IMG/VR virus record: IMGVR_UViG_2925919700_000002
Span: 1 to 12,421 of that record
DNA from: a virus
Lineage: Duplodnaviria; Heunggongvirae; Uroviricota; Caudoviricetes
Reading direction: 5' to 3' (one strand)
DNA: 12,421 nucleotides
In this document: one piece after another, positions 1 through 12,421 of the stretch
How the letters are laid out: each line of letters begins with the position of its first letter
How positions within the stretch are numbered: the first letter of the stretch is position 1
The notes under the pieces: model-generated
What the model saw: the letters and a program-made list of their open reading frames with translations, nothing else
What the model was told of the DNA's origin: nothing
Databases searched by the model: none
Program-made: the position numbers and the translations under genes

Positions 1-1146
1 TTACGCCTTCTTTATATCCTCCATAATTCCAGAGTGGGACATATTTGGGACATTATCACCAAAAATGTCGTCTATTTTCCTCGAATGCTCTGTCAAATGA
101 TTAGGCGCAAGGTGAGCATACCTACGAACCATTTCTATGGACTCCCATCCGCCCATTTCCTGAAGCACTGATAATGGGACGCCTGACTGAATCAGCCAGC
201 TTGCCCAGGTGTGTCTGAGGTCATGGAAACGGAAATCTTCAATTCCTGCACGACGACAAGCTGATAGCCATGATGTCTTGCTGTCGATGCGCATCTTCCT
301 GACCGCAGGCGTTGATGTTCCATCTGCTCGCTTAGCCGCCTTGGTATGTACAAACACCCATTTGTGATGCTTGCCTATTTGATCACGCAACACTTTACAG
401 GCGGTATCGTTCAGCGCCACACCAATGGCGCGGTTTGATTTGCTCTCTTCTGGATTCACCCAGGCAACTCGTCGCTGCATGTCGATTTGTTGCCATTCCA
501 GATTTATGATGTTCGACTTTCTCAGACCAGTTGCCAGCGCAAACTTGACGACAGATTTCAGTGGTTCGGGGCACTCATCAATAAGGCGTTTTGCTTCCTC
601 CTTTTCCAGCCATCTGACTCGCTTGTTTCTGACCGCTGGTTTCTTGATGACAGGCGCTTTTTCCAGCCACTTCCAGTCGCGTTCTGCAGCACGGAGAATG
701 GCCTTTATCATGGCAAGATGCTTTGCCTTTGTCTGAGTTGATACTGGCTTTGGTTCATAAACAGGCGGTTCTTTACCTTTCCTGATGGCGGCCTGAACTT
801 TCTGTTTCCATATTTCTTTCGTCTTTCTGTTATGCATTCTGCTTACAGCAGAGTAAATCTTTGCCTCCGAGATATCTTTACCAGCTCGTTGCTGCCAGAC
901 GATCCAACCGAGAGTCATATCCCATGCCATGTATTCGTTATCGCCGTTTTTTACTCTACGACGATCTACTAAGTCACCGAAACGCTTTTCCATGAATAAT
1001 TCATAGGCTTCGCGTTCATCTGGCTCTACTTCCAGAGATACGAGTGCGATTTCATAAGCACGGCGCTCAATATCGTCTCGAACCTCTAGGCTGCTGATTC
1101 GTTCTTTGATTTCTTTAATCAGTTCTTTATTGGTAAATGTGGTCAT
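1..1146 (-). CDS. int: Phage tyrosine integrase (P22/DLP12 IntD family catalytic and core-binding domains) with a non-canonical N-terminal ~90 aa
   Basis: 381-aa ORF, stop at 1-3, ATG at 1144-1146. C-terminal region carries the tyrosine recombinase signature ([17 protein letters not shown] ... [39 protein letters not shown]). N-terminal ~90 aa are acidic and helical, unlike the MSLFRR-type arm-binding domain I recall for this family. Confidence 0.85.
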
Positions 1147-1508
1147 TATGCTCCAGCCTCCGGTGCTTTTGGCATTACTGCCCAGTGAGTGATATTGACG
1201 TTTTCAAGGTCCCCGACCTGAAATGTCCACTGCCATTCTCCGGTTTCTTTTTGTCCCCAGGTGTACCAGAGAGAACGCCAGCCAATCAGCCAGCCTTCTC
1301 CATTAGCATCAAATAACAGAACACTTTCATTTGCTGGTGGCAGTTCAGCTGACACTGGTATTATTTTGTTTTCCAGTGCCGCACATTTAGCTTCAAGCGC
1401 GTCGAATTTACGTAACAGGTACTCAGCATTTGTTTCATTCACTTTCAGATCTCGCGGTACACATTTCCCGCGAAGAAACCCTTCCATTTCGAAAACATTC
1501 ATGCGCAT
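1146..1508 (-). CDS. Hypothetical phage protein, DUF551-like C-terminus, translationally coupled to int
   Basis: 120-aa ORF. Its TAA stop overlaps the int ATG (TAATG on the minus strand). GGAG lies 8 nt upstream of the ATG at 1506-1508. C-terminal Trp-rich motif ([17 protein letters not shown] ... [12 protein letters not shown]) resembles the conserved DUF551 C-terminus. Function unknown. Confidence 0.6.
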
Positions 1509-1723
1509 TTGCGTAACTCCGATAAATCGTTAAAACGTTCCATAAACATCCCGTAGGCATGACCCGGTGCCAGTGGAATCACGTTGAACATCTCTGTTGC
1601 CGGGATGCCTTCCAGTACCGTGGCATTTGAAGAGAAGTATGGCTCCCAGCTGGAGCTGATATTTCGTTTTATCGATCGCGCACTGGCGATTGGTGTGCTG
1701 GCCTGATTTTGTGGAGAAAGTTA

Positions 1724-2107
1724 ATGCGTGATATTCAGATGGTTCTTGAACGTTGGGGAGCGTGGGCGGCTAATAATCATGAAGATGTGACCTGGTCGTC
1801 CATTGCCGCCGGTTTTAAGGGATTAATTCCTTCAAAAGTAAAATCTCGCCCGCAATGTTGTGACGATGACGCGATGATTATTTGCGGGTGCATGGCCCGT
1901 CTGAAAAAGAACAACAGCGATTTGCACGATTTATTAGTAGATTATTATGTAGTCGGTATGACATTCATGTCACTGGCAGGTAAGCATTGCTGCTCTGATG
2001 GTTATATCGGGAAAAGGTTACAGAAGGCTGAGGGCATAATTGAAGGGATGTTAATGGCATTAGATATCCGGTTAGAGATGGATATCGTTGTTAATAACTC
2101 TAATTAA
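1724..2107 (+). CDS. quuD: Late-gene antiterminator Q, phage 82 / DLP12 QuuD type
   Basis: 127 aa from ATG 1724 ([14 protein letters not shown]...), with GGAGAAAG 5 nt upstream. Cys clusters ([25 protein letters not shown]) are typical of 82-type Q. The ORF track's TTG at 1709 is a less likely start. Sits directly upstream of the late/lysis region. Confidence 0.85.
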
Positions 2108-2246
2108 TATGCCAATTGTTTACTGAAAGTTATTAAAAATGGGGCGTTGCAACGCCCCCAAAAATAAAGGGTAATATATAACAGAAGGTTTATATAGTTA
2201 GAAGCAAGGTTGTGCTCCTAAAGGAAGTGGCTTGAGGGAGCCACTT
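2108..2246 (+). promoter_or_regulatory. Presumed late promoter and Q-utilisation region (pR'/qut equivalent); exact -35/-10 not resolved
   Basis: Position immediately downstream of Q and upstream of a plus-strand terminator, as in lambda and phage 82. I could not pick a convincing sigma-70 hexamer pair by eye. Confidence 0.3.
2133..2158 (-). terminator. Rho-independent terminator on the minus strand, downstream of nmpC
   Basis: Perfect 18-bp GC-rich palindrome GGGGCGTTGCAACGCCCC (2141-2158). On the minus strand it is followed by ATTTTT; on the plus strand it is flanked by A-runs, so it is strand-specific. Confidence 0.6.
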
Positions 2247-2287
2247 ATATGTTGGGGAGGCAACGCCTCCCGCAACATATCTTTTTC
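2225..2287 (+). terminator. Tandem hairpins followed by a T-run on the plus strand; candidate late terminator (tR' equivalent)
   Basis: Hairpin 1 at 2225-2246 (AAGTGGCT / AGCCACTT). Hairpin 2 at 2247-2280 (ATATGTTGGGGAGGC / GCCTCCCGCAACATAT, one bulge). CTTTTT follows at 2281-2286. Confidence 0.5.
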
Positions 2288-2296
2288 GTAATCAGA

Positions 2297-3394
2297 TTAG
2301 AACTGGTAAACCAGACCTACAGCAACGATGTCATCAGTGCTTACACCGAGTGCTTTAGTGAAGTCATTTTTGTCAAGCAGGTTGATTTTGTAATCAACGA
2401 AAGTAGACATATTTTTGTTGAAGTAATAGGTTGCACCTACATCAACATATTTGACTAAGTCCTGATCGCCCCATACTCCAAGATCCTTACCTTTAGATTG
2501 CAGGTAAGCAACGGACGGACGCAGACCGAAATCGAACTGATATTGTGCAACAGCTTCGAAGTTTTGAGCTTTATTAGCAACGAAGTGATCAGCAAATACA
2601 GTCATATTCTGGGTTTCAGAATAGGTAGTGGCCAGGTAAATGTTGTTAGCGTCATATTTCAGACCTGCGGCCCAAACTTCTGCATTTTTACCGGAAGCAA
2701 ATACTTCAGGAAGAACTTTCCCTGCATTAACTTGAGTGTCGGTACGATCAGATTTCGCATAAGTTGCACCGATACCGAATCCTTCGTATTCATAGGTAGC
2801 AGAGAAACCGAAGCCATCACCGTTACCTTCGGTGTAGTTATCGAAATCGCTACGATCGTTTTTGCCTTGGTACTGAGCAGCAAAGTTCAGACCATCAACC
2901 AGACCAAAGAAGTCGTTGTTACGATAGGTTGCAACACCAGTGGTGCGACCAGTCATGAACACATCTGTTTGGGTCCAGGTATCGCCACCGAATTCTGGCA
3001 GAACGTCAGTCCACGCACCGATGTCGTATGCTACACCGTAGTTACGGCCGTAATCGATTGAGCCGTAGTCACCGAATTTCAGGCCTGCAAATGCAAGACG
3101 GGTTTTGTCTTTGGAGGAACCTTGAGATTCAGCGCGGTTGCCTTTGAATTCATATTCCCACTGACCGAAACCAGTCAGCTGATCGTTGATTTGGGTTTCG
3201 CCTTTGAAGCCCAGACGAACATAAGTAGTATCACCATCATCTGCATCGTTAGAGGAAAAGTAGTGCTTGGCATTAACTTTCCCGTACAGATCCAGCTTGT
3301 TACTGTCTTTATTATAAATTTCAGCTGCCTGAGCAGACATCGCCATCAGTACTGATGCAGCTACAGCAGAAATTGCCACTGTTAATTTTTTCAT
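2297..3394 (-). CDS. nmpC: Outer-membrane general porin, prophage-encoded NmpC/Lc type (OmpC/OmpF/PhoE family), intact
   Basis: 365 aa. Sec signal peptide [23 protein letters not shown] then AEIYNKD. Porin signatures throughout and a C-terminal ...VGLVYQF ending in Phe. AAGGG lies upstream of the ATG at 3392-3394. No insertion sequence interrupts it. Confidence 0.9.
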
Positions 3395-3982
3395 CGTGAG
3401 CCCTTTTTTTTGAACTATTATTAAAAAATGATGTCACTGCACGATAAATATTCATCTAATCAATGTGATTATTTCAAGATGTAAGTTTTAGTTTCTCATT
3501 TAATTTGTGAAGTAGATCTCTATTTTTATCTGAACTTTTTCTATCGAAACCTATTTATGGCTCTTATTTGAACAAAAATAAATCTATTAGCTAATTTATA
3601 TTAATGGCTGTTATTTATGGTGGTTCTATAATTCGTCTGTTTAATTTAAACCGGCTAAAAATAACACTGGAAATTATTTATTGGTTATTTGTTGAGGTTT
3701 TCTTATGTATTTGTGGTGATGTTTTGAACACTCGGTAGCATTCTCATAAATATCATTCAGTGGTTTACGTACGTAAAAAATTGGTTATGCTGTTAAGAGT
3801 GGTTACTTCGTCACACAGCTTAAACCCGCCGTCGAGCTGGTTTTTCCATTTTTTGAGTCTCGATATTAGCTGATAACTCAATACCTGAGTTATTCACTGA
3901 CTCGGAGTCAGTTACGTTTCTGCTTTTTTGCGATACGTTGTATTCCCTCAATTTACACCCGCTTTGTCTGCGAGGTGGGGTT
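3395..3982. promoter_or_regulatory. AT-rich 590-bp intergenic region: nmpC promoter/regulatory region and lysis-cassette leader
   Basis: No ORF of 60 aa or more. Degenerate direct repeats of TTATTTATGG at about 3552, 3611 and 3675, roughly 60 bp apart. Hairpin ACTGAC-TCGGA-GTCAGT at 3896-3912 upstream of the holin. Confidence 0.35.
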
Positions 3983-4198
3983 ATGAAATTCATGGATAAG
4001 TTAACAACTGGAGTCGCCTATGGCACCTCAGCAGGTAGTGCCGGTTACTGGTTTTTACAGCTGCTCGATAAAGTCACTCCCTCACAGTGGGCAGCAATAG
4101 GTGTGCTGGGTAGCCTGGTATTTGGCCTGCTGACGTACCTGACAAACCTTTATTTCAAGATTAAAGAAGATAAGCGCAAGGCTGCGAGAGGTGAATAA
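3983..4198 (+). CDS. essD: Class II pinholin, phage 21 S type, with dual-start motif
   Basis: 71 aa, [24 protein letters not shown]... Met1-Lys-Phe-Met4 gives antiholin and holin starts. Two TMDs and a charged C-terminus ([13 protein letters not shown]). GAGGTGGGG lies upstream. Stop overlaps the endolysin start (TAATG). Confidence 0.9.
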
Positions 4199-4695
4199 TG
4201 CCTCCATCATTACGAAAAGCCGTTGCTGCTGCTATTGGTGGCGGAGCAATTGCTATAGCATCAGTGTTAATCACTGGCCCAAGTGGTAACGATGGTCTGG
4301 AAGGTGTCAGCTACATACCATACAAAGATATTGTTGGTGTATGGACTGTATGTCACGGACACACCGGAAAAGACATCATGCTCGGTAAAACGTATACCAA
4401 AGCAGAATGCAAAGCACTCTTGAATAAAGACCTTGCCACTGTCGCCAGACAAATTAACCCGTATATCAAAGTCGATATACCGGAAACAACGCGCGGCGCT
4501 CTTTACTCATTCGTTTACAATGTGGGTGCTGGCAATTTTAGAACATCGACGCTTCTTCGCAAAATAAACCAGGGCGATATCAAAGGCGCATGTGATCAGC
4601 TGCGTCGCTGGACATACGCTGGCGGTAAGCAATGGAAAGGCCTGATGACTCGTCGTGAGATTGAGCGTGAAGTCTGTTTGTGGGGGCAACAGTGA
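4198..4695 (+). CDS. rrrD: SAR endolysin (signal-anchor-release lysozyme, phage 21 R type)
   Basis: 165 aa. N-terminal Gly/Ala-rich weakly hydrophobic SAR domain ([22 protein letters not shown]) followed by a lysozyme-like catalytic region. ATG overlaps the holin stop. Confidence 0.9.
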
Positions 4696-5153
4696 GCAGA
4701 GTAACCGCGATTATATCCGCTCTGATTATCTGCATCATCGTCAGCCTGTCATGGGCGGTCAATCATTACCGTGATAACGCAATCGCCTACAAAGCCCAGC
4801 GCGACAAAAATGCCAGAGAACTGAAGCTAGCGAACGCGGCAATTACTGACATGCAGATGCGTCAGCGTGATGTTGCTGCGCTCGATGCAAAATACACGAA
4901 GGAGTTAGCTGATGCGAAAGCTGAAAATGATGCTCTGCGTGATGATGTTGCCGCTGGTCGTCGTCGGTTGCACATCAAAGCAGTCTGTCAGTCAGTGCGT
5001 GAAGCCACCACGGCCTCCGGCGTGGATAATGCAGCCTCCCCCCGACTGGCAGACACCGCTGAACGGGATTATTTCACCCTCAGAGAGAGGCTGATCACTA
5101 TGCAAAAACAACTGGAAGGAACCCAGAAGTATATTAATGAGCAGTGCAGATAG
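4692..5153 (+). CDS. rzpD: Rz inner-membrane spanin (i-spanin), lambda Rz-like
   Basis: 153 aa from GTG 4692 ([29 protein letters not shown]...). N-terminal TMD plus coiled-coil periplasmic domain. GTG overlaps the endolysin TGA (GTGA). The ORF track's 4680 start is less likely. Confidence 0.85.
4912..5094 (+). CDS. rzoD: Rz1 outer-membrane lipoprotein spanin (o-spanin), embedded in the +1 frame of Rz
   Basis: 60 aa, [20 protein letters not shown]... Lipobox VVGC, then a proline-rich mature part ([15 protein letters not shown]). GGAG lies 7 nt upstream of the ATG. Lies wholly inside Rz. Confidence 0.8.
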
Positions 5154-5184
5154 AGCTGACCATATCGATGGGCAACTCATGCAA

Positions 5185-5478
5185 TTATTTTGAGCAATAC
5201 ACACGCGCTTCCAGCGGAGTATAAATGCCTAAAGTAATAAAACCGAGCAATCCATTTACGAATGTTTGCTGGGTTTCTGTTTTAACAACATTTTCTGCGC
5301 CGCCACAAATTTTGGCTGCATCGACAGTTTTCTTCTGCCCAATTCCAGAAACGAAGAAATGATGGGTGATGGTTTCCTTTGGTGCTACTGCTGTCTGTTT
5401 GTTTTGAACAGTAAACGTCTGTTGAGCACATCCTGTAATAAGCAGGGCCAGCGCAGTAGCGAGTAGCATTTTTTTCAT
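5185..5478 (-). CDS. borD: Bor lipoprotein (lambda Bor-type serum-resistance outer-membrane lipoprotein)
   Basis: 97 aa. Signal peptide with lipobox (LLITGC). Near-identical to the lambda Bor sequence as I recall it. Confidence 0.9.
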   Translation of the reverse strand: MKKMLLATALALLITGCAQQTFTVQNKQTAVAPKETITHHFFVSGIGQKKTVDAAKICGGAENVVKTETQQTFVNGLLGFITLGIYTPLEARVYCSK

Positions 5479-5768
5479 GGTGTTATTCCCGATGCTTTTT
5501 GAAGTTCGCAGAATCGTATGTGTAGAAAATTAAACAAACCCTAAACAATGAGTTGAAATTTCATATTGTTAATATTTATTAATGTATGTCAGGTGCGATG
5601 AATCGTCATTGTATTCCCGGATTAACTATGTCCACAGCCCTGACGGGGAACTTCTCTGCGGGAGTGTCCGGGAATAATTAAAAACGATGCACACAGGGTT
5701 TAGCGCGTACACGTATTGCATTATGCCAACGCCCCGGTGCTGACACGGAAGAAACCGGACGTTATGAT

Positions 5769-6179
5769 TTAGCGTGGAAAGATTTGTGTAGTGTTCTGAA
5801 TGCTCTCAGTAAATAGTAATGAATTATCAAAGGTATAGTAATATCTTTTATGTTCGTGGATATTTGTAACCCATCGGAAAACTCCTGCTTTAGCAAGATT
5901 TTCCCTGTATTGCTGAAATGTGATTTCTCTTGATTTCAACCTATCAAAGGACGTTTCTATAAGATGCGTATTTCTTGAGAATTTAACATTTACAACCTTT
6001 TTAAGTCCTTTTATTAACACAGTGTTATCGTTTTCTAACACAATGTGAATATTATCTGTGGCTAGATAGTAAATATAATGTGAGACATTGTGACGTTTTA
6101 GTTCAGAATAAAACAATTCACAGTTTAAATCTTTTCGCACTTGATCGAATATTTCTTTAAAAATGGCAACCTGAGCCAT
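5769..6179 (-). CDS. ybcV: DLP12-type prophage protein YbcV (DUF1398)
   Basis: 136 aa from ATG 6177-6179 ([11 protein letters not shown]...), with GGAAGG upstream. The open frame extends upstream to an ATG at 6221 and a TTG at 6302, so the start is ambiguous. Confidence 0.7.
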
Positions 6180-6464
6180 TGGTAAAACCTTCCATGTGAT
6201 ACGAGGGCGCGTAGTTTGCATTATCGTTTTTATCGTTTCAATCTGGTCTGACCTCTTTGTGTTTTGTTGATGATTTATGTCAAATATTAGGAATGTTTTC
6301 AATTAATAGTATTGGTTGTGTAACAAAGTGCGGTCCTGCTGGCATTCTGGAGGGAAATACAACCGACAGATGTATGTAAGGCCAACGTGCTCAAATCTTC
6401 ATACAGAAAGATTTGAAGTAATATTTTAACCGCTAGATGAAGAGCAAGCGCATGGAGCGACAAA

Positions 6465-6671
6465 ATGAATAAAGAACAATCTGCTGATGATCCCTCCGTG
6501 GATCTGATTCGTGTAAAAAATATGCTTAATAGCACCATTTCTATGAGTTACCCTGATGTTGTAATTGCATGTATAGAACATAAGGTGTCTCTGGAAGCAT
6601 TCAGGGCAATTGAGGCAGCGTTGGTGAAGCACGATAATAATATGAAGGATTATTCCCTGGTGGTTGACTGA
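6465..6671 (+). CDS. ybcW: Small DLP12-type prophage protein (YbcW-like), function unknown
   Basis: 68 aa, [22 protein letters not shown]... GGAG lies 7 nt upstream of the ATG. Divergent from ybcV. Confidence 0.6.
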
Positions 6672-6937
6672 TCACCATAACTGCTAATCATTCAAACTAC
6701 TTAACCTGTGACAGAGCCAACACGCAGTCTGTCACTGTCAGGAAAGTGGTAAAACTGCAACTCAATTACTGCAATGCCCTCGTAATTAAGTGAATTTACA
6801 ATATCGTCCTGTTCGGAGGGAAGAACGCGGGATGTTCATTCTTCATCACTTTTAATTGATGTATATGCTCTCTTTTCTGACGTTAGCCTCCGACGGCAGG
6901 CTTCAATGACCCAGGCTGAGAAATTCCCGGACCCTTT

Positions 6938-9028
6938 TTGATCAAGAGCGATGTTAATTTGTTCAATCATTTGGTTAGGAAATCCGCGGCAACGCGCGCC
7001 GAGACAGCAGCAAAACGGGCAGAGGATATTGCATCCGCCGTGGCGCTTGAGGATGCGAGCACGACGAAAAAGGGGATAGTACAGCTCAGCAGTGCGACCA
7101 ACAGCACGTCTGAAACGCTGGCGGCAACGCCAAAGGCAGTAAAAGCAGCCAATGACAATGCTGAGAAACGTCTGCAGAAAGACCAGAACGGCGCTGATAT
7201 ACCCGATAAGGGACGCTTCCTGAACAACATTAACGCGGTCAGTAAAACAGACTTTGCTGATAAGCGTGGTATGCGTTATGTGCGGGTTAACGCTCCTGCA
7301 GGTGCAACATCTGGAAAATATTACCCTGTTGTTGTTATGCGTTCTGCTGGCTCAGTAAGCGAACTGGCATCAAGGGTCATTATCACCACGGCAACGCGAA
7401 CCGCAGGCGATCCGATGAATAACTGCGAGTTTAACGGATTTGTTATGCCTGGTGGCTGGACTGACAGGGGGCGTTATGCTTATGGAATGTTCTGGCAATA
7501 TCAAAACAATGAACGAGCCATCCACTCAATAATGATGAGTAATAAGGGCGATGATTTGCGCTCTGTGTTCTATGTTGATGGCGCTGCTTTCCCTGTTTTT
7601 GCGTTTATCGAAGATGGCCTGTCAATATCCGCACCTGGTGCTGATCTCGTTGTTAATGATACGACCTATAAGTTTGGGGCAACAAATCCAGCGACTGAAT
7701 GTATCGCGGCGGACGTTATCCTTGATTTTAAGAGTGGGCGTGGTTTTTATGAGTCTCATTCGTTAATCGTTAACGATAACTTGTCGTGCAAAAAACTTTT
7801 TGCCACAGACGAAATTGTAGCGCGTGGTGGTAATCAGATTCGAATGATAGGTGGGGAGTATGGTGCATTATGGCGTAATGATGGCGCTAAAACTTACCTG
7901 CTGCTTACCAATCAAGGTGATGTTTATGGTGGCTGGAATACATTAAGACCGTTTGCTATTGATAACGCAACCGGCGAACTGGTTATTGGAACCAAACTGT
8001 CCGCAAGTCTGAACGGTAATGCATTAACAGCAACAAAGCTGCAAACGCCAAGACTGGTTTCTGGTGTTGAGTTTGATGGTTCCAAAGATATTACTTTAAC
8101 CGCCGCGCATGTGGCTGCTTTTGCCAGAAGGGCAACGGATACGTATGCCGATGCGGATGGGGGCGTTCCATGGAATGCCGAATCAGGCGCTTACAATGTC
8201 ACCCGCTCTGGCGACAGCTATATTCTGGTTAACTTCTATACCGGAGTCGGAAGTTGCCGGACCTTGCAGATGAAGGCACATTACAGAAATGGAGGTCTGT
8301 TCTACCGTTCCTCAAGAGATGGCTATGGTTTTGAGGAAGACTGGGCAGAAGTTTATACCTCGAAAAATCTTCCACCAGAAAGCTACCCAGTCGGTGCACC
8401 AATCCCGTGGCCATCAGATACCGTTCCGTCTGGTTATGCCCTGATGCAGGGGCAGACTTTTGACAAATCTGCATACCCGAAACTTGCAGCCGCTTATCCG
8501 TCAGGCGTGATCCCTGATATGCGTGGCTGGACGATTAAGGGCAAACCTGCCAGTGGTCGTGCCGTATTGTCTCAGGAACAGGACGGCATTAAATCGCACA
8601 CCCACAGCGCCAGCGCATCCAGTACGGATTTGGGGACGAAAACCACATCGTCGTTTGATTACGGCACTAAATCCACGAATAACACCGGGGCGCATACGCA
8701 CAGTGTGAGCGGTACAGCCGCAAGTGCCGGAAACCATACTCATAGTGTCACAGGCGCATCAGCAGTCAGCCAGTGGTCACAAAATGGGTCAGTACATAAG
8801 GTAGTGTCTGCGGCCAGTGTGAATACAAGTGCTGCAGGAGCGCACACTCATAGTGTCAGCGGCACAGCCGCATCTGCAGGTGCTCACGCACATACTGTCG
8901 GTATTGGTGCTCATACGCACTCTGTTGCGATTGGCTCACATGGACACACCATCACCGTTAACGCTGCTGGTAACGCGGAAAACACCGTCAAAAACATCGC
9001 ATTTAACTACATTGTGAGGCTTGCATAA
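6938..9028 (+). CDS. stf: Side tail fibre protein, 5'-truncated: distal ~680 aa only, lacking the N-terminal tail-attachment domain; start codon uncertain (possible pseudogene)
   Basis: Open frame of 696 codons from TTG 6938. Similarity to Stf begins near 6984 ([55 protein letters not shown]). Conserved C-terminal block (GAPIPWPSD ... [31 protein letters not shown] ... [18 protein letters not shown]) matches lambda Stf and StfR as recalled. No in-frame ATG with an RBS near the 5' end. Confidence 0.8.
8596..8957 (+). repeat. His-x-His repeat array within the stf 3' region
   Basis: Repeated [15 protein letters not shown] units (8688-8732 and 8838-8882) plus shorter HTHS/HAHT/HGHT units. These are coding repeats, typical of the fibre-tip domains of lambda Stf and T4 gp37-type fibres. 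Confidence 0.7.
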
Positions 9029-9603
9029 TGGCATTCAGAATGAGTGAACAACCACGGACCATAAAAATTTATAATCTGCTGTCCGGAACTAATGAATTTA
9101 TTGGTGAAGGTGATGCATATATTCCGCCTCATACAGGTCTGCCAGCAAACAGTACCGATATTGCACCGCCAGATATTCCGGCTGGTTTCGTGGCTGTTTT
9201 CAACAGTGATGAGTCATCGTGGCATCTCGTTGAAGATCATCGGGGTAAAACGGTTTATGACGTGGCTTCCGGCGACGCGTTATTTATTTCTGAACTCGGC
9301 TCATTACCGGAAAATGTCACCTGGTTATCCCCGGAAGGGGAGTTTCAGAAGTGGAACGGCACAGCCTGGGGGAAGGATACGGAAGCAGAAAAACTGTTCC
9401 GGATCCGGGAGGCGGAAGAAACAAAAAACAGCCTGATGCAGGTAGCCAGTGAGCATATAGCGCCGCTTCAGGATGCTGTGGATCTGGAGATCGCAACGGA
9501 GAAAGAAACCTTGTTGCTGGAAGCCTGGAAAAAGTATCGGGTGTTGCTGAATCGTGTTGATACATCAACTGCACCGGATATTGAATGGCCAGCCCTACCG
9601 TAG
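9028..9603 (+). CDS. tfa: Tail fibre assembly protein (Tfa)
   Basis: 191 aa. ATG overlaps the stf stop (TAATG). Conserved C-terminal Tfa block [37 protein letters not shown]. Confidence 0.85.
9455..9568 (+). repeat. Direct repeat copy A (tfa 3' conserved block)
   Basis: About 114 bp, roughly 85% identical by eye to 12226-12340, in the same orientation. Confidence 0.7.
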
Positions 9604-9679
9604 GGTAAGATATATAAATTCTATAATTAGAAGTATCTTTCCATTTAAGGCTAGGAAGGGGGGCTTGGAAAACGTAAGG

Positions 9680-9703
9680 AATCTCACACCGAGATTATTT
9701 TTA
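9680..9703. terminator. Weak hairpin between convergent tfa and recombinase genes; possible bidirectional terminator
   Basis: Stem AATCTC / GAGATT with loop ACACC at 9680-9696, followed by ATTTTT on the plus strand. Short stem, low confidence. Confidence 0.3.
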
Positions 9704-10291
9704 TATATCAGGTGTCTGATTTTTTGCTTTAGCTCTTAAAATGGTTTGCCGCGAGGTTTTGAATTCTTGGGCAATGTCACTTATATTTATACCTGACTTA
9801 ATTTGCTCTAGTACCCTCTGTATTTGTTCATCATTTAACACAGGTGGGCGACCAAATCGCTTTCCTGCGCCCCGTGCTCTTAATATCCCTGAATGAGTAC
9901 GCTCAAGTAAAAGGTCTCGCTCAAATTCAGCGACTGCTGAAATTACTTGCATCATCATTTTTCCAGGTGGACTGGTCAGGTCAACGCCCCCCAATGCTAA
10001 GCAATGCACTTTGATACCTGCTTTGGTCAGTTGTTCCACCGTTTTACTGATATCCATTGGATTACAACCGAGGCGATCCAGTTTTGTGACAATCAATGCA
10101 TCACCTCTTTTCAGTCGATCAAGCAACTGGTTAAAACCAGGACGCTCACTGGTTGCTGCTGAGCCGCTAATTTGTTCTTCAATTATTTGCTGAGATTTGA
10201 TGTTAAAACCTGCACTTTCGATTTCCCGACGTTGATTTTTGGTTGTTTGTTCCAGAGTTGATACCCGACAGTAAGCATAAATTCGAGACAT
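9701..10291 (-). CDS. Small serine recombinase (resolvase/invertase family), PinR/PinQ-like
   Basis: 196 aa. N-terminal catalytic motif [11 protein letters not shown] with the presumptive catalytic Ser. Conserved [12 protein letters not shown] and [14 protein letters not shown] blocks. C-terminal HTH ([19 protein letters not shown]). Position after stf-tfa on the opposite strand matches the Rac and Qin layout. Confidence 0.85.
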
Positions 10292-10609
10292 AGTGAGATC
10301 TTCTATACGAAATTGGTGTACATATCATAATGCATCTCAGAAAATAATTTTGATTATTTTTGTACATATTTGTATGTACACGTTCGAAAATAAACGAATG
10401 CGTATGCAACCCCGTAATTTTGGTGAGATCCAAAATCGATTTTGTGAAAAATGGCCTTAACTCGGTTTGTTTTTCGAGTTCCGGGCGGACTCAAGGAAGA
10501 AGAATAGTGTTGCGTGTTATTTTAACCAGATTTCAAGTTGTTTGGTCGTGGAAAAGTGGAGCAAAATGTTGTTAAAGTGGAAAAATGATAAAAAAGTAAG
10601 TTTATTATA
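10292..10609. promoter_or_regulatory. 318-bp AT-rich spacer upstream of the recombinase, with palindromes
   Basis: Inverted repeat TGTACATA-tttg-TATGTACA (10361-10380), with a TGTACATA half-site copy at 10317-10324. Perfect 14-bp palindrome CAAAATCGATTTTG (10431-10444). Direct repeats of AAGTGGAAAA around 10549-10585. No convincing ORF. Confidence 0.4.
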
Positions 10610-10843
10610 TTACATTTTACCATTTAAATTTTTGTTGTCTTTAAGAACTGATATCGCTGTTTGTAATAATTCTTTGTTATCCAGCCATGACTTTTTCTTT
10701 ATGTTTCCTTCAATGTAATCAAGCAATGTTCTGGTATTGATAGGTCTTCCCTGTTTTGCTACTTCCATTACAGCATCCCCTAGGATAATTCTTACTTCAG
10801 GAAGCTGCGCAGGGAACCACTTTAGGGTGTCTTTTGATTTCAT
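10610..10843 (-). CDS. Small prophage protein, YnaE/YdfK-like by position and size
   Basis: 77 aa from ATG 10841-10843 (MKSKDTLKWFPAQ...), with AAGGAA 7 nt upstream. The ORF track's start at 10876 has no RBS. Sits upstream of the pin-like gene on the same strand, as ynaE/ydfK do in Rac and Qin. Identity is from recollection, not alignment. Confidence 0.5.
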   Translation of the reverse strand: MKSKDTLKWFPAQLPEVRIILGDAVMEVAKQGRPINTRTLLDYIEGNIKKKSWLDNKELLQTAISVLKDNKNLNGKM

Positions 10844-11343
10844 GAAGATATTCCTTAAAATATTATTGATTTTCATTGCGATATTGTATGTCTGATTCAG
10901 TATATGTTGACTTATACATCGGTTTTGTCTGGGTTATTGGATATGCCAATCCCTAATTTTATTAGAGCATGACTAAAAATGCTGAATATGATAAGGAGCG
11001 AAGTGATTATCAGTATGCTGTTCATATAGCCTCGAATTAGTAATGTGTTATATATGATATAGTTGACAATTTTTATCCTGGGGGTTCTTAAAGTTCGTAG
11101 ATAAACATTGTCGTTTCAGGTATACAGGAATGCTAACAGGTGGCAGCAAAAATCAGGCGGTTTATGGCGCAAGCTGAAGTGGCAACTGCAAACTATCTTA
11201 TGCAGAGACTCTACACGGATTGGGTTTAAAAGTATACATAGATAACAGTTTTTATCTGAAGAAGAAAAATATCAAGGTGATATAGCCTATATGCCTATGA
11301 TGCGGAGGAATGAATGTGATGGGAGTGATGTATCTGAATAGTT

Positions 11344-11383
11344 GAAAAACCGCAGACACGCCTTAAGCAAGAACGTGCTGCGG
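11344..11383 (-). terminator. Rho-independent terminator downstream of the ybcY-like gene
   Basis: On the minus strand: stem CCGCAGCACG ... CGTGTCTGCGG (plus 11350-11383, one bulge) followed directly by TTTTT (plus 11345-11349). Confidence 0.6.
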
Positions 11384-11390
11384 TTGGATG

Positions 11391-12059
11391 CTATTTTTTC
11401 CCTGAAGCGGAAAACATTACTACAGTACCTTGAACCTTGGTTTTAACATTCTCGAAATGCTCTGAGAGTATATGTGTTAAGCCTTCTTCGGAATCTTTTG
11501 TGTTTGAAAAGATGCCTTTCTGATTGTAAATGCGCATCAGTTTTTGACCGAAGCTATTGTGCACAACTCCATCGCCAAGAATTGTGGCTCCGTATAGAGT
11601 TCCATCGTCAGTTAAGGCCTGCGCCGCATTGCGTATTACACAGCTTTTTGTAGATATATTTCCAGGCAGGCAGTGAAGAAGGTAAAACATGGAAATGGAA
11701 TCAAATTGACCATGTAACGCCGCGGGATAAGGTTCAAAAACATCATGGCTAATTTTATGTTTAATTTTTGATTCCCCAGCCCTTGTAGATGCCGCGTTCA
11801 GGCTAGCTTCGTTCAAATCCATTAAAGATATCAGACTACTCTCAGGTACGTGAGTAAGGTAAAACCCAGTTCCAACACCAATATCCAGATGGTTGTTACC
11901 TAAATGTTCCAGAAAGTGTGGAAGAAGGTGTTCCTTTGTAGGACATCCCCATGCAAGCCGATTTGATACTCCCAAAACCCACCAGTCATAAAGCTTTAGG
12001 GTAAGTGGTGTGTAAATTTTAGCCCCATCATCTGTGTTTTTTTTCATTAATTTCACCAT
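11391..12059 (-). CDS. ybcY: Class I SAM-dependent methyltransferase (YbcY-like), apparently intact
   Basis: 222 aa. Motif I DIGVGTGFY. The start may instead be the second Met (ATG ending at 12047), which has GGTG upstream; the first ATG at 12059 has no RBS. Confidence 0.7.
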   Translation of the reverse strand: MVKLMKKNTDDGAKIYTPLTLKLYDWWVLGVSNRLAWGCPTKEHLLPHFLEHLGNNHLDIGVGTGFYLTHVPESSLISLMDLNEASLNAASTRAGESKIKHKISHDVFEPYPAALHGQFDSISMFYLLHCLPGNISTKSCVIRNAAQALTDDGTLYGATILGDGVVHNSFGQKLMRIYNQKGIFSNTKDSEEGLTHILSEHFENVKTKVQGTVVMFSASGKK

Positions 12060-12115
12060 GTTATAGTTTTATTTGTGAATTAAATCAATTATGGCGATGA
12101 ATTACAAGGGGTTAA

Positions 12116-12421
12116 ATGCTGCCGCAGCATAGCGATATTGAAATAGCCTGGTATGCTTCGATACAACAGGAGCCGAATGGCTGGAAGACCGTCACCACAC
12201 AGTTCTACATCCAGGAATTCAGTGAGTATATTGCGCCACTGCAGGATGCTGTAGATCTGGAAATCGCAACGGAGGAAGAAAGATCGTTGCTGGAGGCATG
12301 GAATAAATATCGGGTATTGTTGAATCGAGTTGATACATCAGTAGCTCTGGGTATGAAGCTGTTTGTAACTCATGTTACAGTAACAGTCATTACTATCTCG
12401 AAGGTGCAAAATGTATATTGA
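12116..12421 (+). CDS. tfaX: Tail fibre assembly protein remnant (TfaX-like), carrying only the conserved Tfa C-terminal block
   Basis: 101 aa. AAGGGG lies upstream of the ATG at 12116. Contains [37 protein letters not shown], then an unrelated tail. Stop at 12419-12421. Confidence 0.6.
12226..12340 (+). repeat. Direct repeat copy B (tfa 3' conserved block)
   Basis: Partner of 9455-9568, same orientation. Confidence 0.7.

Follow-up and report, generated by a model that had tools for sequence, protein, structure and literature searches.

IpeX reportedly lowers OmpC and OmpF and leaves OmpA unaffected; its effect on ompC is said to be independent of Hfq and that on ompF not, and the abstract of the original description from 2006 is said to state that no complementarity was found. 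Since 2006 this RNA has been cited as regulating porins by some means other than base pairing. Pairing of IpeX with ompC or ompF is denied in a 2013 review, and another review holds that the mechanism of the RNA does not rely on complementarity alone; as reviewed, IpeX is a 167-nt RNA of DLP12 that is made from the porin promoter within the porin transcript and is then processed. MicC (anti-ompC) and MicF (anti-ompF) are small RNAs that are linked to porin genes and act by base pairing. Lambdoid phages also carry morons, such as bor and lom of lambda, with a promoter and a terminator of their own, and make late leaders that end at tR', such as the lambda 6S RNA and StxS. In Stx phages, dRNA-seq has located the late promoter PR' and Term-seq has located tR', with 258 nt between them (PMC7547250), and published work places the lysis operon under the control of Q and RpoE.

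The window, that is, the whole stretch of DNA that was analysed, comprises 12,421 nt (positions 1 to 12,421 of IMG/VR record IMGVR_UViG_2925919700_000002). As revealed by Pfam scans and by the RefSeq annotation of a 99.9%-identical genome, it is a remnant of a lambdoid prophage of the DLP12/qsr'/PA-2 type, with the following features.

1-1146, minus strand: integrase
1146-1508, minus strand: DUF551 gene
about 1584-1706, plus strand: DUF968 gene, 3' fragment
1724-2107, plus strand: quuD, Q-type antiterminator, 127 aa (Pfam PF06530, E = 8.5e-54)
2135-2296, minus strand: porin 3' UTR, which is the IpeX RNA, from the base after the stop to the last U of the terminator tail (K-12/PA-2 identity, K-12 Term-seq)
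2135-2158, minus strand: intrinsic terminator of the porin/IpeX transcript (scan; fold of -13.9 kcal/mol; K-12 Term-seq end)
2159-2200, minus strand: mostly unpaired A/U-rich stretch with a candidate seed (hybrid and opening energies, conservation, RIL-seq)
2198-2221, minus strand: stem-loop 3, whose core AGGAGCA/UGCUUCU holds 7 of its 9 predicted pairs (MFE and centroid structure)
2225-2246, minus strand: stem-loop 2, 8 bp (fold)
2247-2280, minus strand: stem-loop 1, 15 bp with a bulge (fold; K-12 Term-seq 3' end at window 2244)
2247-2289, plus strand: stem-loop 1 read on this strand, then C-UUUUU-CG; candidate intrinsic terminator for quuD transcripts (sequence, fold)
2297-3394, minus strand: intact porin nmpC/lc, 365 aa (Pfam Porin_1, E = 1.8e-156; RefSeq porin)
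3764-3845, plus strand: homologue of the Stx-phage PR' and initial transcribed region (blastn, alignments)
3983/3992-4198, plus strand: essD
4198-4695, plus strand: rrrD
4680-5153, plus strand: rzpD
5185-5478, minus strand: bor
5769-6302, minus strand: ybcV
6938-9028, plus strand: tail fibre
9028-9603, plus strand: tail-fibre assembly gene
9701-10291, minus strand: Pin-like invertase

QuuD is so annotated in RefSeq genomes 99.9% identical to the window; it shares ~79-82% identity with the short Q found in Stx phages and belongs to the Q21 structural family, with a distant match to the Q21 structures 6p18/6jnx (E = 8e-8). The porin corresponds to lc of the PA-2 record J02580. No early region upstream of Q is present in the window, where the integrase gene and the DUF968 fragment abut Q, and the module is ordered as Q, the reversed porin unit together with the terminator of that unit, and the putative late promoter.

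Results

Palindromes and crossed terminators in the spacer

The convergent stop codons of quuD (2105-2107) and the porin (2297-2299) enclose a spacer of 189 bp (2108-2296). A first-pass annotation of this DNA had claimed three strong palindromes here, one with a T-run on the minus strand only and a tandem pair with a T-run on the plus strand only, and direct reading of the sequence confirmed both the palindromes and the strands of their T-runs. The palindrome at 2141-2158 (GGGGCGTTGCAACGCCCC) continues 3' into ATTTTTAATA when the minus strand is read and into CAAAAATAAAG when the plus strand is read. The tandem pair is made up of a hairpin at 2225-2246 (AAGTGGCT-TGAGGG-AGCCACTT) and another at 2247-2280 (ATATGTTGGGGAGGC-AAC-GCCTCCC(G)CAACATAT), the latter with 15 pairs and a single bulged base at 2272. 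On the plus strand this second hairpin runs into C-TTTTT-CG, with the T-run at 2282-2286; downstream of it, the minus strand has AAGTGGCT and no U-run.

Terminator prediction recovered only part of this arrangement. A consensus scan called the palindrome at 2141-2158 as a minus-strand terminator, whereas the hairpin at 2247-2280 was absent from the output for the sole reason that the scanner allows no bulge. The minus-strand terminator consists of a stem (2158-2152/2147-2141), a loop (2151-2148) and a tail of A and UUUUU (2140-2135), and its variation among 80 related loci lies nearly all in the loop. None of the palindromes forms a bidirectional terminator, in which an A-tract upstream and a T-tract downstream flank one hairpin, as no hairpin has U-runs on both strands. 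The two terminators are distinct and arranged crosswise, and the 3' ends of the transcripts would overlap by ~150 nt if both were used.

Both strands folded to energies well beyond chance expectation. The minus strand from 2299 to 2125 reached -62.4 kcal/mol (z = -7.8), which none of 200 shuffles equalled, and the plus strand gave z = -4.6. For the tandem pair alone (-34.8 kcal/mol), z reached -8.2 when the minus strand was folded and -5.6 for the plus strand, and two weaker minus-strand stem-loops, at 2221-2198 and 2196-2175, lie between this pair and the terminator. In stem-loop 3, a variant at 2217 turns a G·U pair into A-U. Covariation was sought in 80 IMG/VR loci chosen through Q, which yielded 27 near-identical spacer variants; among these variants there were no double changes, and variable columns amounted to 12 of 112 paired and 17 of 77 unpaired positions. 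A REP element or transposon end was also considered and dropped: the hairpins are unique to the module, lie in a transcribed 3' UTR and match mapped RNA ends.

The minus-strand RNA is IpeX

The minus-strand RNA of the spacer is the 3' UTR of the porin gene (nmpC/lc) and is the published IpeX RNA, and the element is thereby already known. The spacer has the same length as K-12 MG1655 574340-574528 and is identical to it at 184 of 189 positions, two of the five differences falling in the terminator loop; its identity to the region that follows lc in the PA-2 record J02580 is 97.4%. These identities support the first-pass annotation, which had read the minus strand as an nmpC 3' UTR or an independent sRNA, and as a possible counterpart of IpeX. 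The RNA begins directly 3' of the porin stop on the porin strand and carries a Rho-independent terminator at 2158-2141 with a U-tail to 2135, and it measures 162-167 nt from 2296 to where the terminator tail ends.

Mapped RNA ends in K-12, where the window position equals the K-12 coordinate minus 572232, agree with this assignment. Term-seq (Adams 2021) shows strong minus-strand 3' ends at 574367/574366, corresponding to window 2135/2134 and the last U of the tail, so that the minus-strand transcript ending near 2135 that had been predicted from the sequence is found in K-12. A second minus-strand 3' end lies at 574476 (window 2244), three bases 3' of stem-loop 1, and a Rho-dependent region is situated just downstream, at 574331. 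Rfam has no family for IpeX; its gathering thresholds returned only IS009, elsewhere in the window, and a search by E-value returned chance-level matches. The SMRT-Cappable-seq supplements have no entries covering the region.

We propose that the porin is transcribed from its own promoter and that the transcript would run through ~162 nt of structured 3' UTR to the terminator at 2158-2141 and its U5, with the 3' end at 2135/2134. Stem-loop 1 (2280-2247) probably marks a processing or stabilising boundary, and the regulatory RNA would be the part downstream of it, comprising stem-loop 2, stem-loop 3, the A/U-rich unpaired stretch and the terminator. Stem-loop 2 is the probable 5' hairpin of processed IpeX, as the ipeX part in RIL-seq starts at K-12 574466 (window 2234). 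An independent sRNA gene, with a promoter of its own inside the 3' end of the porin gene, would account for the abundant IpeX still found in K-12 despite the IS5 between the porin promoter and IpeX. We regard such a gene as quite improbable, because the minus strand upstream has no promoter-like site of 9/12 and only one poor site of 8/12, the ipeX reads of K-12 RIL-seq reach 574612, inside the IS5 end, which points to read-through from IS5, and the reviewed account is one of synthesis from the porin promoter and processing. We thus retain IpeX as a product of the porin 3' UTR.

The spacer travels with the porin

The spacer is present in 2,509 of 5,426 complete E. coli genomes (46%), mostly at 90-100% identity. 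E. albertii has a copy of it, 87% identical, downstream of a 96%-identical porin; there, homology to the window ends right past the terminator tail and the flank beyond differs, and therefore the unit moves with the porin and not with Q. The substitutions in the E. albertii copy are in loops, except for one compensatory change from C-G to U-A in the top pair of stem-loop 1. Among the 80 most similar porin loci of other species (OmpD, OmpC and OmpF types), no IpeX-like 3' UTR was found outside E. coli and E. albertii. In the window, the porin unit extends from its own terminator at ~2133 to ~3763, where the PR' homology begins. The 189-bp spacer is very probably part of a porin moron, a self-contained lysogenic-conversion unit, and not part of the late operon.

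The late promoter probably lies beyond the porin

The Q gene of Stx2 phage II closes with the hexamers TTTACG-16-TATCAT, and the start deduced from them falls 258 nt before the U-run of tR', which is the mapped spacing. The end-of-Q sequence of this phage matches the window at 3764-3845 (blastn, 76% over 83 nt), between the porin start and essD, and the match covers the PR' promoter and the first ~50 nt of its transcript. The homologue has a -35 element TTTACG (3764-3769), a -10 element TATGCT (3786-3791), an inferred start at about 3798 and a hairpin at 3823-3842 followed by T-runs. The block is also present in K-12 and in the viable phage mEp332, where it has a perfect hairpin and T-runs; compared with these, the hairpin in the window is weakened by one G-to-T change. 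In all likelihood, judging from this homology, the Q-dependent late promoter is located at 3764-3798, 1.65 kb further downstream and in front of essD. The assignment rests on homology and not on consensus because the homologue scores 8/12 against the sigma-70 consensus, which equals the score of two sites in the spacer, where no site reaches 9/12; the consensus promoter scan is non-discriminating and also fails to call the PR' homologue. Nor does this homologue have a 3' end in the K-12 Term-seq lists. As for RpoE, published primers described as covering -121 to +650 fall at 3322 and about 4106 in the window, which puts the sigma-E start at ~3443, beyond the porin, and a GAACT-N17-TCACT motif is found at that position.

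The first-pass annotation had instead placed a late promoter with a tR'-like terminator on the plus strand of the spacer. According to this reading, the promoter is constitutive and its short leader ends at the hairpin pair and T-run, an analogue of tR', until Q modifies RNA polymerase, after which the late transcript runs antisense through the porin to the lysis genes. A hairpin and T5 do follow Q on the plus strand, as in an intrinsic terminator with a short and variable run, and a relaxed scan finds GTAATA-16-TATAGT at 2171-2198, from which an RNA of ~80 nt would arise. Moreover, phage Lambda_ev087 has a tR'-like terminator within ~100 nt of Q and then the reversed gene blc, and therefore such a layout exists in related phages. 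However, the candidate -35 element matches at only 3/6 positions, the spacer shows no similarity to the sequence downstream of Q in either Stx2 II or ev087, the block homologous to the mapped Stx PR' is outside the spacer, and the E. albertii spacer goes with the porin up to the terminator, without Q. In addition, leaders of constitutive promoters of the PR' type are abundant in lysogens, yet K-12 Term-seq, in its thresholded lists for three conditions, has no plus-strand 3' end at 5745xx. A late leader in the spacer is accordingly highly improbable. The suggestion that IpeX overlaps the Q-dependent late leader was not borne out either: the PR' homologue lies beyond the porin, and therefore IpeX does not overlap that leader. 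The sole plus-strand RNA that could overlap IpeX is the 3' end of the Q transcript.

Possible role of the plus-strand hairpin

With the late promoter placed beyond the porin, the plus-strand hairpin and its T5 (2247-2286) would be at most a terminator for read-through from Q, a role for which we see the case as about evenly balanced. Stem-loop 1 and the U5 would then act on the plus strand as a modest terminator that stops Q-gene transcripts from entering the porin antisense. The curated K-12 Term-seq lists for three conditions have no plus-strand 3' end in the spacer, and in thresholded lists of this kind such an absence is uninformative. It is conceivable, though in our view less so, that the terminator-like appearance is incidental, the hairpin serving the minus-strand RNA only, in processing or stability, and an A-run there reading as a T-run on the opposite strand. 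The T-run is just five long, is preceded by C and is reduced to T4 in 35 of 80 related loci (44%), being T5 in the other 45; the stem has an A/U-rich base; a 3' end of the minus strand lies 3 nt from the hairpin; and little plus-strand transcription is expected in a window without an early region upstream of Q. Against an incidental origin, convergent genes need insulation, the hairpin is strong, as the folding energy of the tandem pair indicates, and in two variants the bulge is deleted, which leaves a perfect 15-bp stem.

If the plus-strand hairpin does terminate Q transcripts, a further possibility arises for intact phages such as PA-2 and mEp332. There, the early rightward transcript that carries Q might stop at ~2287, with its last ~150 nt a perfect antisense of IpeX, and at induction it might neutralise IpeX, or RNase III might cleave the duplex and alter Q expression. 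We put this forward as a speculation of low probability; it modifies the interference idea of the first-pass annotation, the 3' end of the Q mRNA taking the place of the late leader. Within this ~150-nt antisense, the plus strand at 2161-2194 is a look-alike of the ompC leader. If the idea held, antisense action of the Q tail on IpeX would couple the lytic switch to the control of host porins.

A candidate seed complementary to ompC and ompF

A blastn comparison of IpeX with the porin loci of other genera gave the same antisense match in ~35 loci, to the leaders of ompC orthologues, and the seed was found in this way. In the predicted duplex with E. coli ompC, IpeX 2190-2176 pairs with positions -21 to -7 (15 bp, one G·U), covering the Shine-Dalgarno sequence, and IpeX 2170-2162 pairs with -31 to -23 (9 bp), giving 15 + 9 = 24 bp within -32 to -6. 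The hybrid has -26.4 kcal/mol and costs 4.9 (IpeX) and 5.5 (ompC) to open, for a net value of about -16. The stretch involved, 2200-2159, is the only long and mostly unpaired part of the predicted IpeX structure and adjoins the terminator; it offers a predicted accessible seed complementary to the translation initiation region of ompC. Over 29 positions, the reverse complement of IpeX agrees with the ompC leader in 26, a score that 4 of 5000 shuffles attained, and a shuffle test on the duplex energy of full-length IpeX was moderately significant (3 of 300, p ~0.01).

Because full-length IpeX gave meaningless, over-extended duplexes with long targets, windowed duplexes and opening energies were used, against a background of 93,213 windows of 30 nt from 78 enterobacterial loci. 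None of these windows was as good as E. coli ompC, and the next best were the ompC leaders of other genera. The region from -15 to +9 of ompF pairs with the same IpeX stretch at -18.6 kcal/mol, within the best 0.1% of the background. The best hybrids of ompA (-9.6 kcal/mol) and of the phage porin's own leader (-10.4 kcal/mol) were unremarkable against the same 93,213 windows. The order of complementarity, ompC > ompF >> ompA, thus fits the reported phenotype of reduced OmpC and OmpF with unaffected OmpA. The seed is the longest invariant block of IpeX, its 22-mer being exact in 79 of 80 loci as well as in the 87%-identical E. albertii copy.

In K-12, Hfq RIL-seq (McQuail 2024) lists ompC.5UTR:::ipeX chimeras (p = 3e-30) in all three replicates of two conditions, the ipeX part spanning 574365-574466 (window 2133-2234); this part includes the seed, the paired bases themselves not being given. 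IpeX has, at 2135-2158, the terminator hairpin and U5 tail typical of an sRNA, and its K-12 copy was recovered in this Hfq RIL-seq. The supplements of Hfq-CLASH do not mention ipeX. The chimeras between ompC and ipeX go undiscussed in the McQuail 2024 paper.

We propose that the unpaired stretch of IpeX would pair with the ompC leader across the Shine-Dalgarno sequence, at the site of MicC, and more weakly with the start region of ompF; this pairing would keep the host porins from being translated during production of the phage porin, whose leader is not complementary. On the evidence of these duplexes, direct base pairing is probably the mechanism by which IpeX acts on ompC and ompF. It is less likely that IpeX represses OmpC and OmpF without base pairing, for example through protein titration or an indirect action on the ompC leader, with the complementarity a coincidence of an A/U-rich, anti-Shine-Dalgarno stretch. 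Both review statements quoted above, one denying pairing with ompC and ompF and the other holding that complementarity alone does not suffice, speak for such an action, as does a full-length shuffle test of only p ~0.01, and, in view of the review statement, mapping may have assigned the activity of IpeX to a region other than the seed. A coincidence would nevertheless have to explain 15 contiguous pairs and 9 more on a conserved ompC leader, a match that outranks the entire background, a seed in the longest invariant block of the RNA, Hfq RIL-seq chimeras in which the seed-containing 3' part of IpeX is joined to the ompC 5' UTR, and a specificity that suits the phenotype.

Discussion

The rediscovery of a published RNA adds little in itself; what is useful here is an explicit map of the module together with a testable pairing model that names the exact bases. 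Compared with IpeX of DLP12 and PA-2, the RNA of the window likewise extends from the porin stop to an intrinsic terminator on the same strand, with 97% identity and matching hairpins, and it is for the K-12 copy that 3' ends and ompC chimeras are on record, at the equivalent coordinates. The two copies differ in that the porin is intact here, whereas the K-12 porin has an IS5 58 nt before its stop. The published description of IpeX differs from ours in lacking the pairing with ompC and ompF that is proposed here.

The comparison with other phage elements concerns the position and content of the unit. Similar to lambdoid late leaders, the spacer has a hairpin and U-run shortly past Q and on the Q strand; in contrast to them, it has no homologous promoter, and the PR' homologue is found on the far side of the porin. 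The porin unit more closely resembles bor and lom, as it is likewise autonomous and oppositely oriented, here inserted between Q and PR'. Unlike these morons, its 3' UTR carries a trans-acting regulator of host genes.

For the regulator itself, a MicC-like antisense RNA is the simplest reading, given the 24-bp match to ompC, the weaker match to ompF and the RIL-seq chimeras. IpeX is not a homologue of MicC. It is nevertheless like MicC and MicF in having a seed followed by an intrinsic terminator with a U-tail, in its recovery with Hfq and in its genetic link to a competing porin gene, and the 5' end of MicC (GUUAUAUGCCUUUAUUG) pairs with the same segment of the ompC leader as is predicted for IpeX. 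The differences are that IpeX is made as the 3' UTR of a porin mRNA, whereas MicC and MicF are transcribed from a divergent promoter of their own; that its predicted duplex with ompC is longer than that of MicC and reaches the Shine-Dalgarno sequence; and that one stretch of IpeX would serve both ompC and ompF. If the pairing model is correct, IpeX would be a third, phage-borne case of a porin gene linked to a silencer of a rival porin, after ompC-micF and ompN-micC, and such a porin-linked silencer would fit a phage that, in the lysogen, exchanges the porin serving as its own receptor.

IpeX and the porin 3' end

IpeX, the minus-strand RNA of the porin 3' UTR, and MicC have the 11-mer CCAACAUAUAA in common, at window 2246-2256 (-) and MicC 63-74, respectively. 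Within IpeX, this 11-mer is located in the stem-loop 1 3' arm. A shuffle test gave 166/5000 for the match, and it may be due to chance. In E. coli K-12, the RIL-seq reads assigned to ipeX at 574510-574612 (-) run into the end of IS5, and RIL-seq also detected chimeras of ipeX with Spot 42; IpeX in this strain seems to be the product of read-through from IS5. The original IpeX abstract reportedly stated a length of '247 bp', which may be explained by the K-12 span 574366-574612, 247 nt in length.

On the opposite strand, one open reading frame begins within stem-loop 1:

2249-2458 (+), ORF of 69 aa, antisense to the porin 3' end

This frame is identical to 'ORF1' in PA-2 record J02580 (1986) and probably does not represent a gene.

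Late-promoter homologue and essD leader

Two promoter-like elements lie between the porin start and essD:

3412-3446 (+), sigma-E-like motif GAACT-N17-TCACT, on the strand opposite the porin and just upstream of its start
3764-3845 (+), TTTACG-16-TATGCT, homologous to PR', the late promoter of Stx phages; start ~3798

The PR' homologue carries the conserved initial transcribed block GTGGTTAC..CAC. The CRP site annotated in the PA-2 GenBank record has its equivalent at window 3799-3819, and in the hairpin that follows the block (3823-3842) a G-to-T change has removed one pair that is intact in K-12, mEp332 and Stx2 phage II. In the Stx2 phage II record (L003), the GenBank-annotated -35/-10 elements (4091-4116) do not fit the PR' start expected from the 258 nt that, according to published data, separate it from tR'; the hexamers at 3923-3950 fit this start. 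The position of the sigma-E-like motif is consistent with the start inferred for the regulatory fragment of the DLP12 lysis operon from the published primers, with -121 set to window 3322. Compared with K-12 and mEp332, the essD leader contains a 16-nt insertion (CTGCTTTTTTGCGATA, 3932-3947), which supplies a T-run 3' of the hairpin at 3896-3912.

Flanking regions

In window 1-1706, an integrase gene and a DUF551 gene (both -) adjoin the 3' fragment of a DUF968 gene immediately 5' of quuD; the early region (repressor, N and replication) is entirely absent, and this element therefore offers no obvious promoter for Q. On the other side, the lysis module adjoins genes for a tail fibre and for tail-fibre assembly, together with a Pin-like invertase in the opposite orientation (6938-10291). 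This arrangement has the appearance of an invertible host-range segment attached to the prophage remnant. Rfam returned a full-length IS009 match at 9371-9569 (+) (212.6 bits, E = 2e-52), located within the tail-fibre assembly gene (9028-9603).

Comparison with Lambda_ev087

In phage Lambda_ev087 (L005 4379-4535), a possible promoter, TTGCTG-17-TAATGT, comes after a Q of 89% identity, and next to it lies a terminator (GCCAGCCTCCCCAAAGGCTGG followed by T8) similar to the Stx tR'. A reversed gene, blc, lies 3' of this tR'-like terminator, and a late transcript in Lambda_ev087 would have to run across it.
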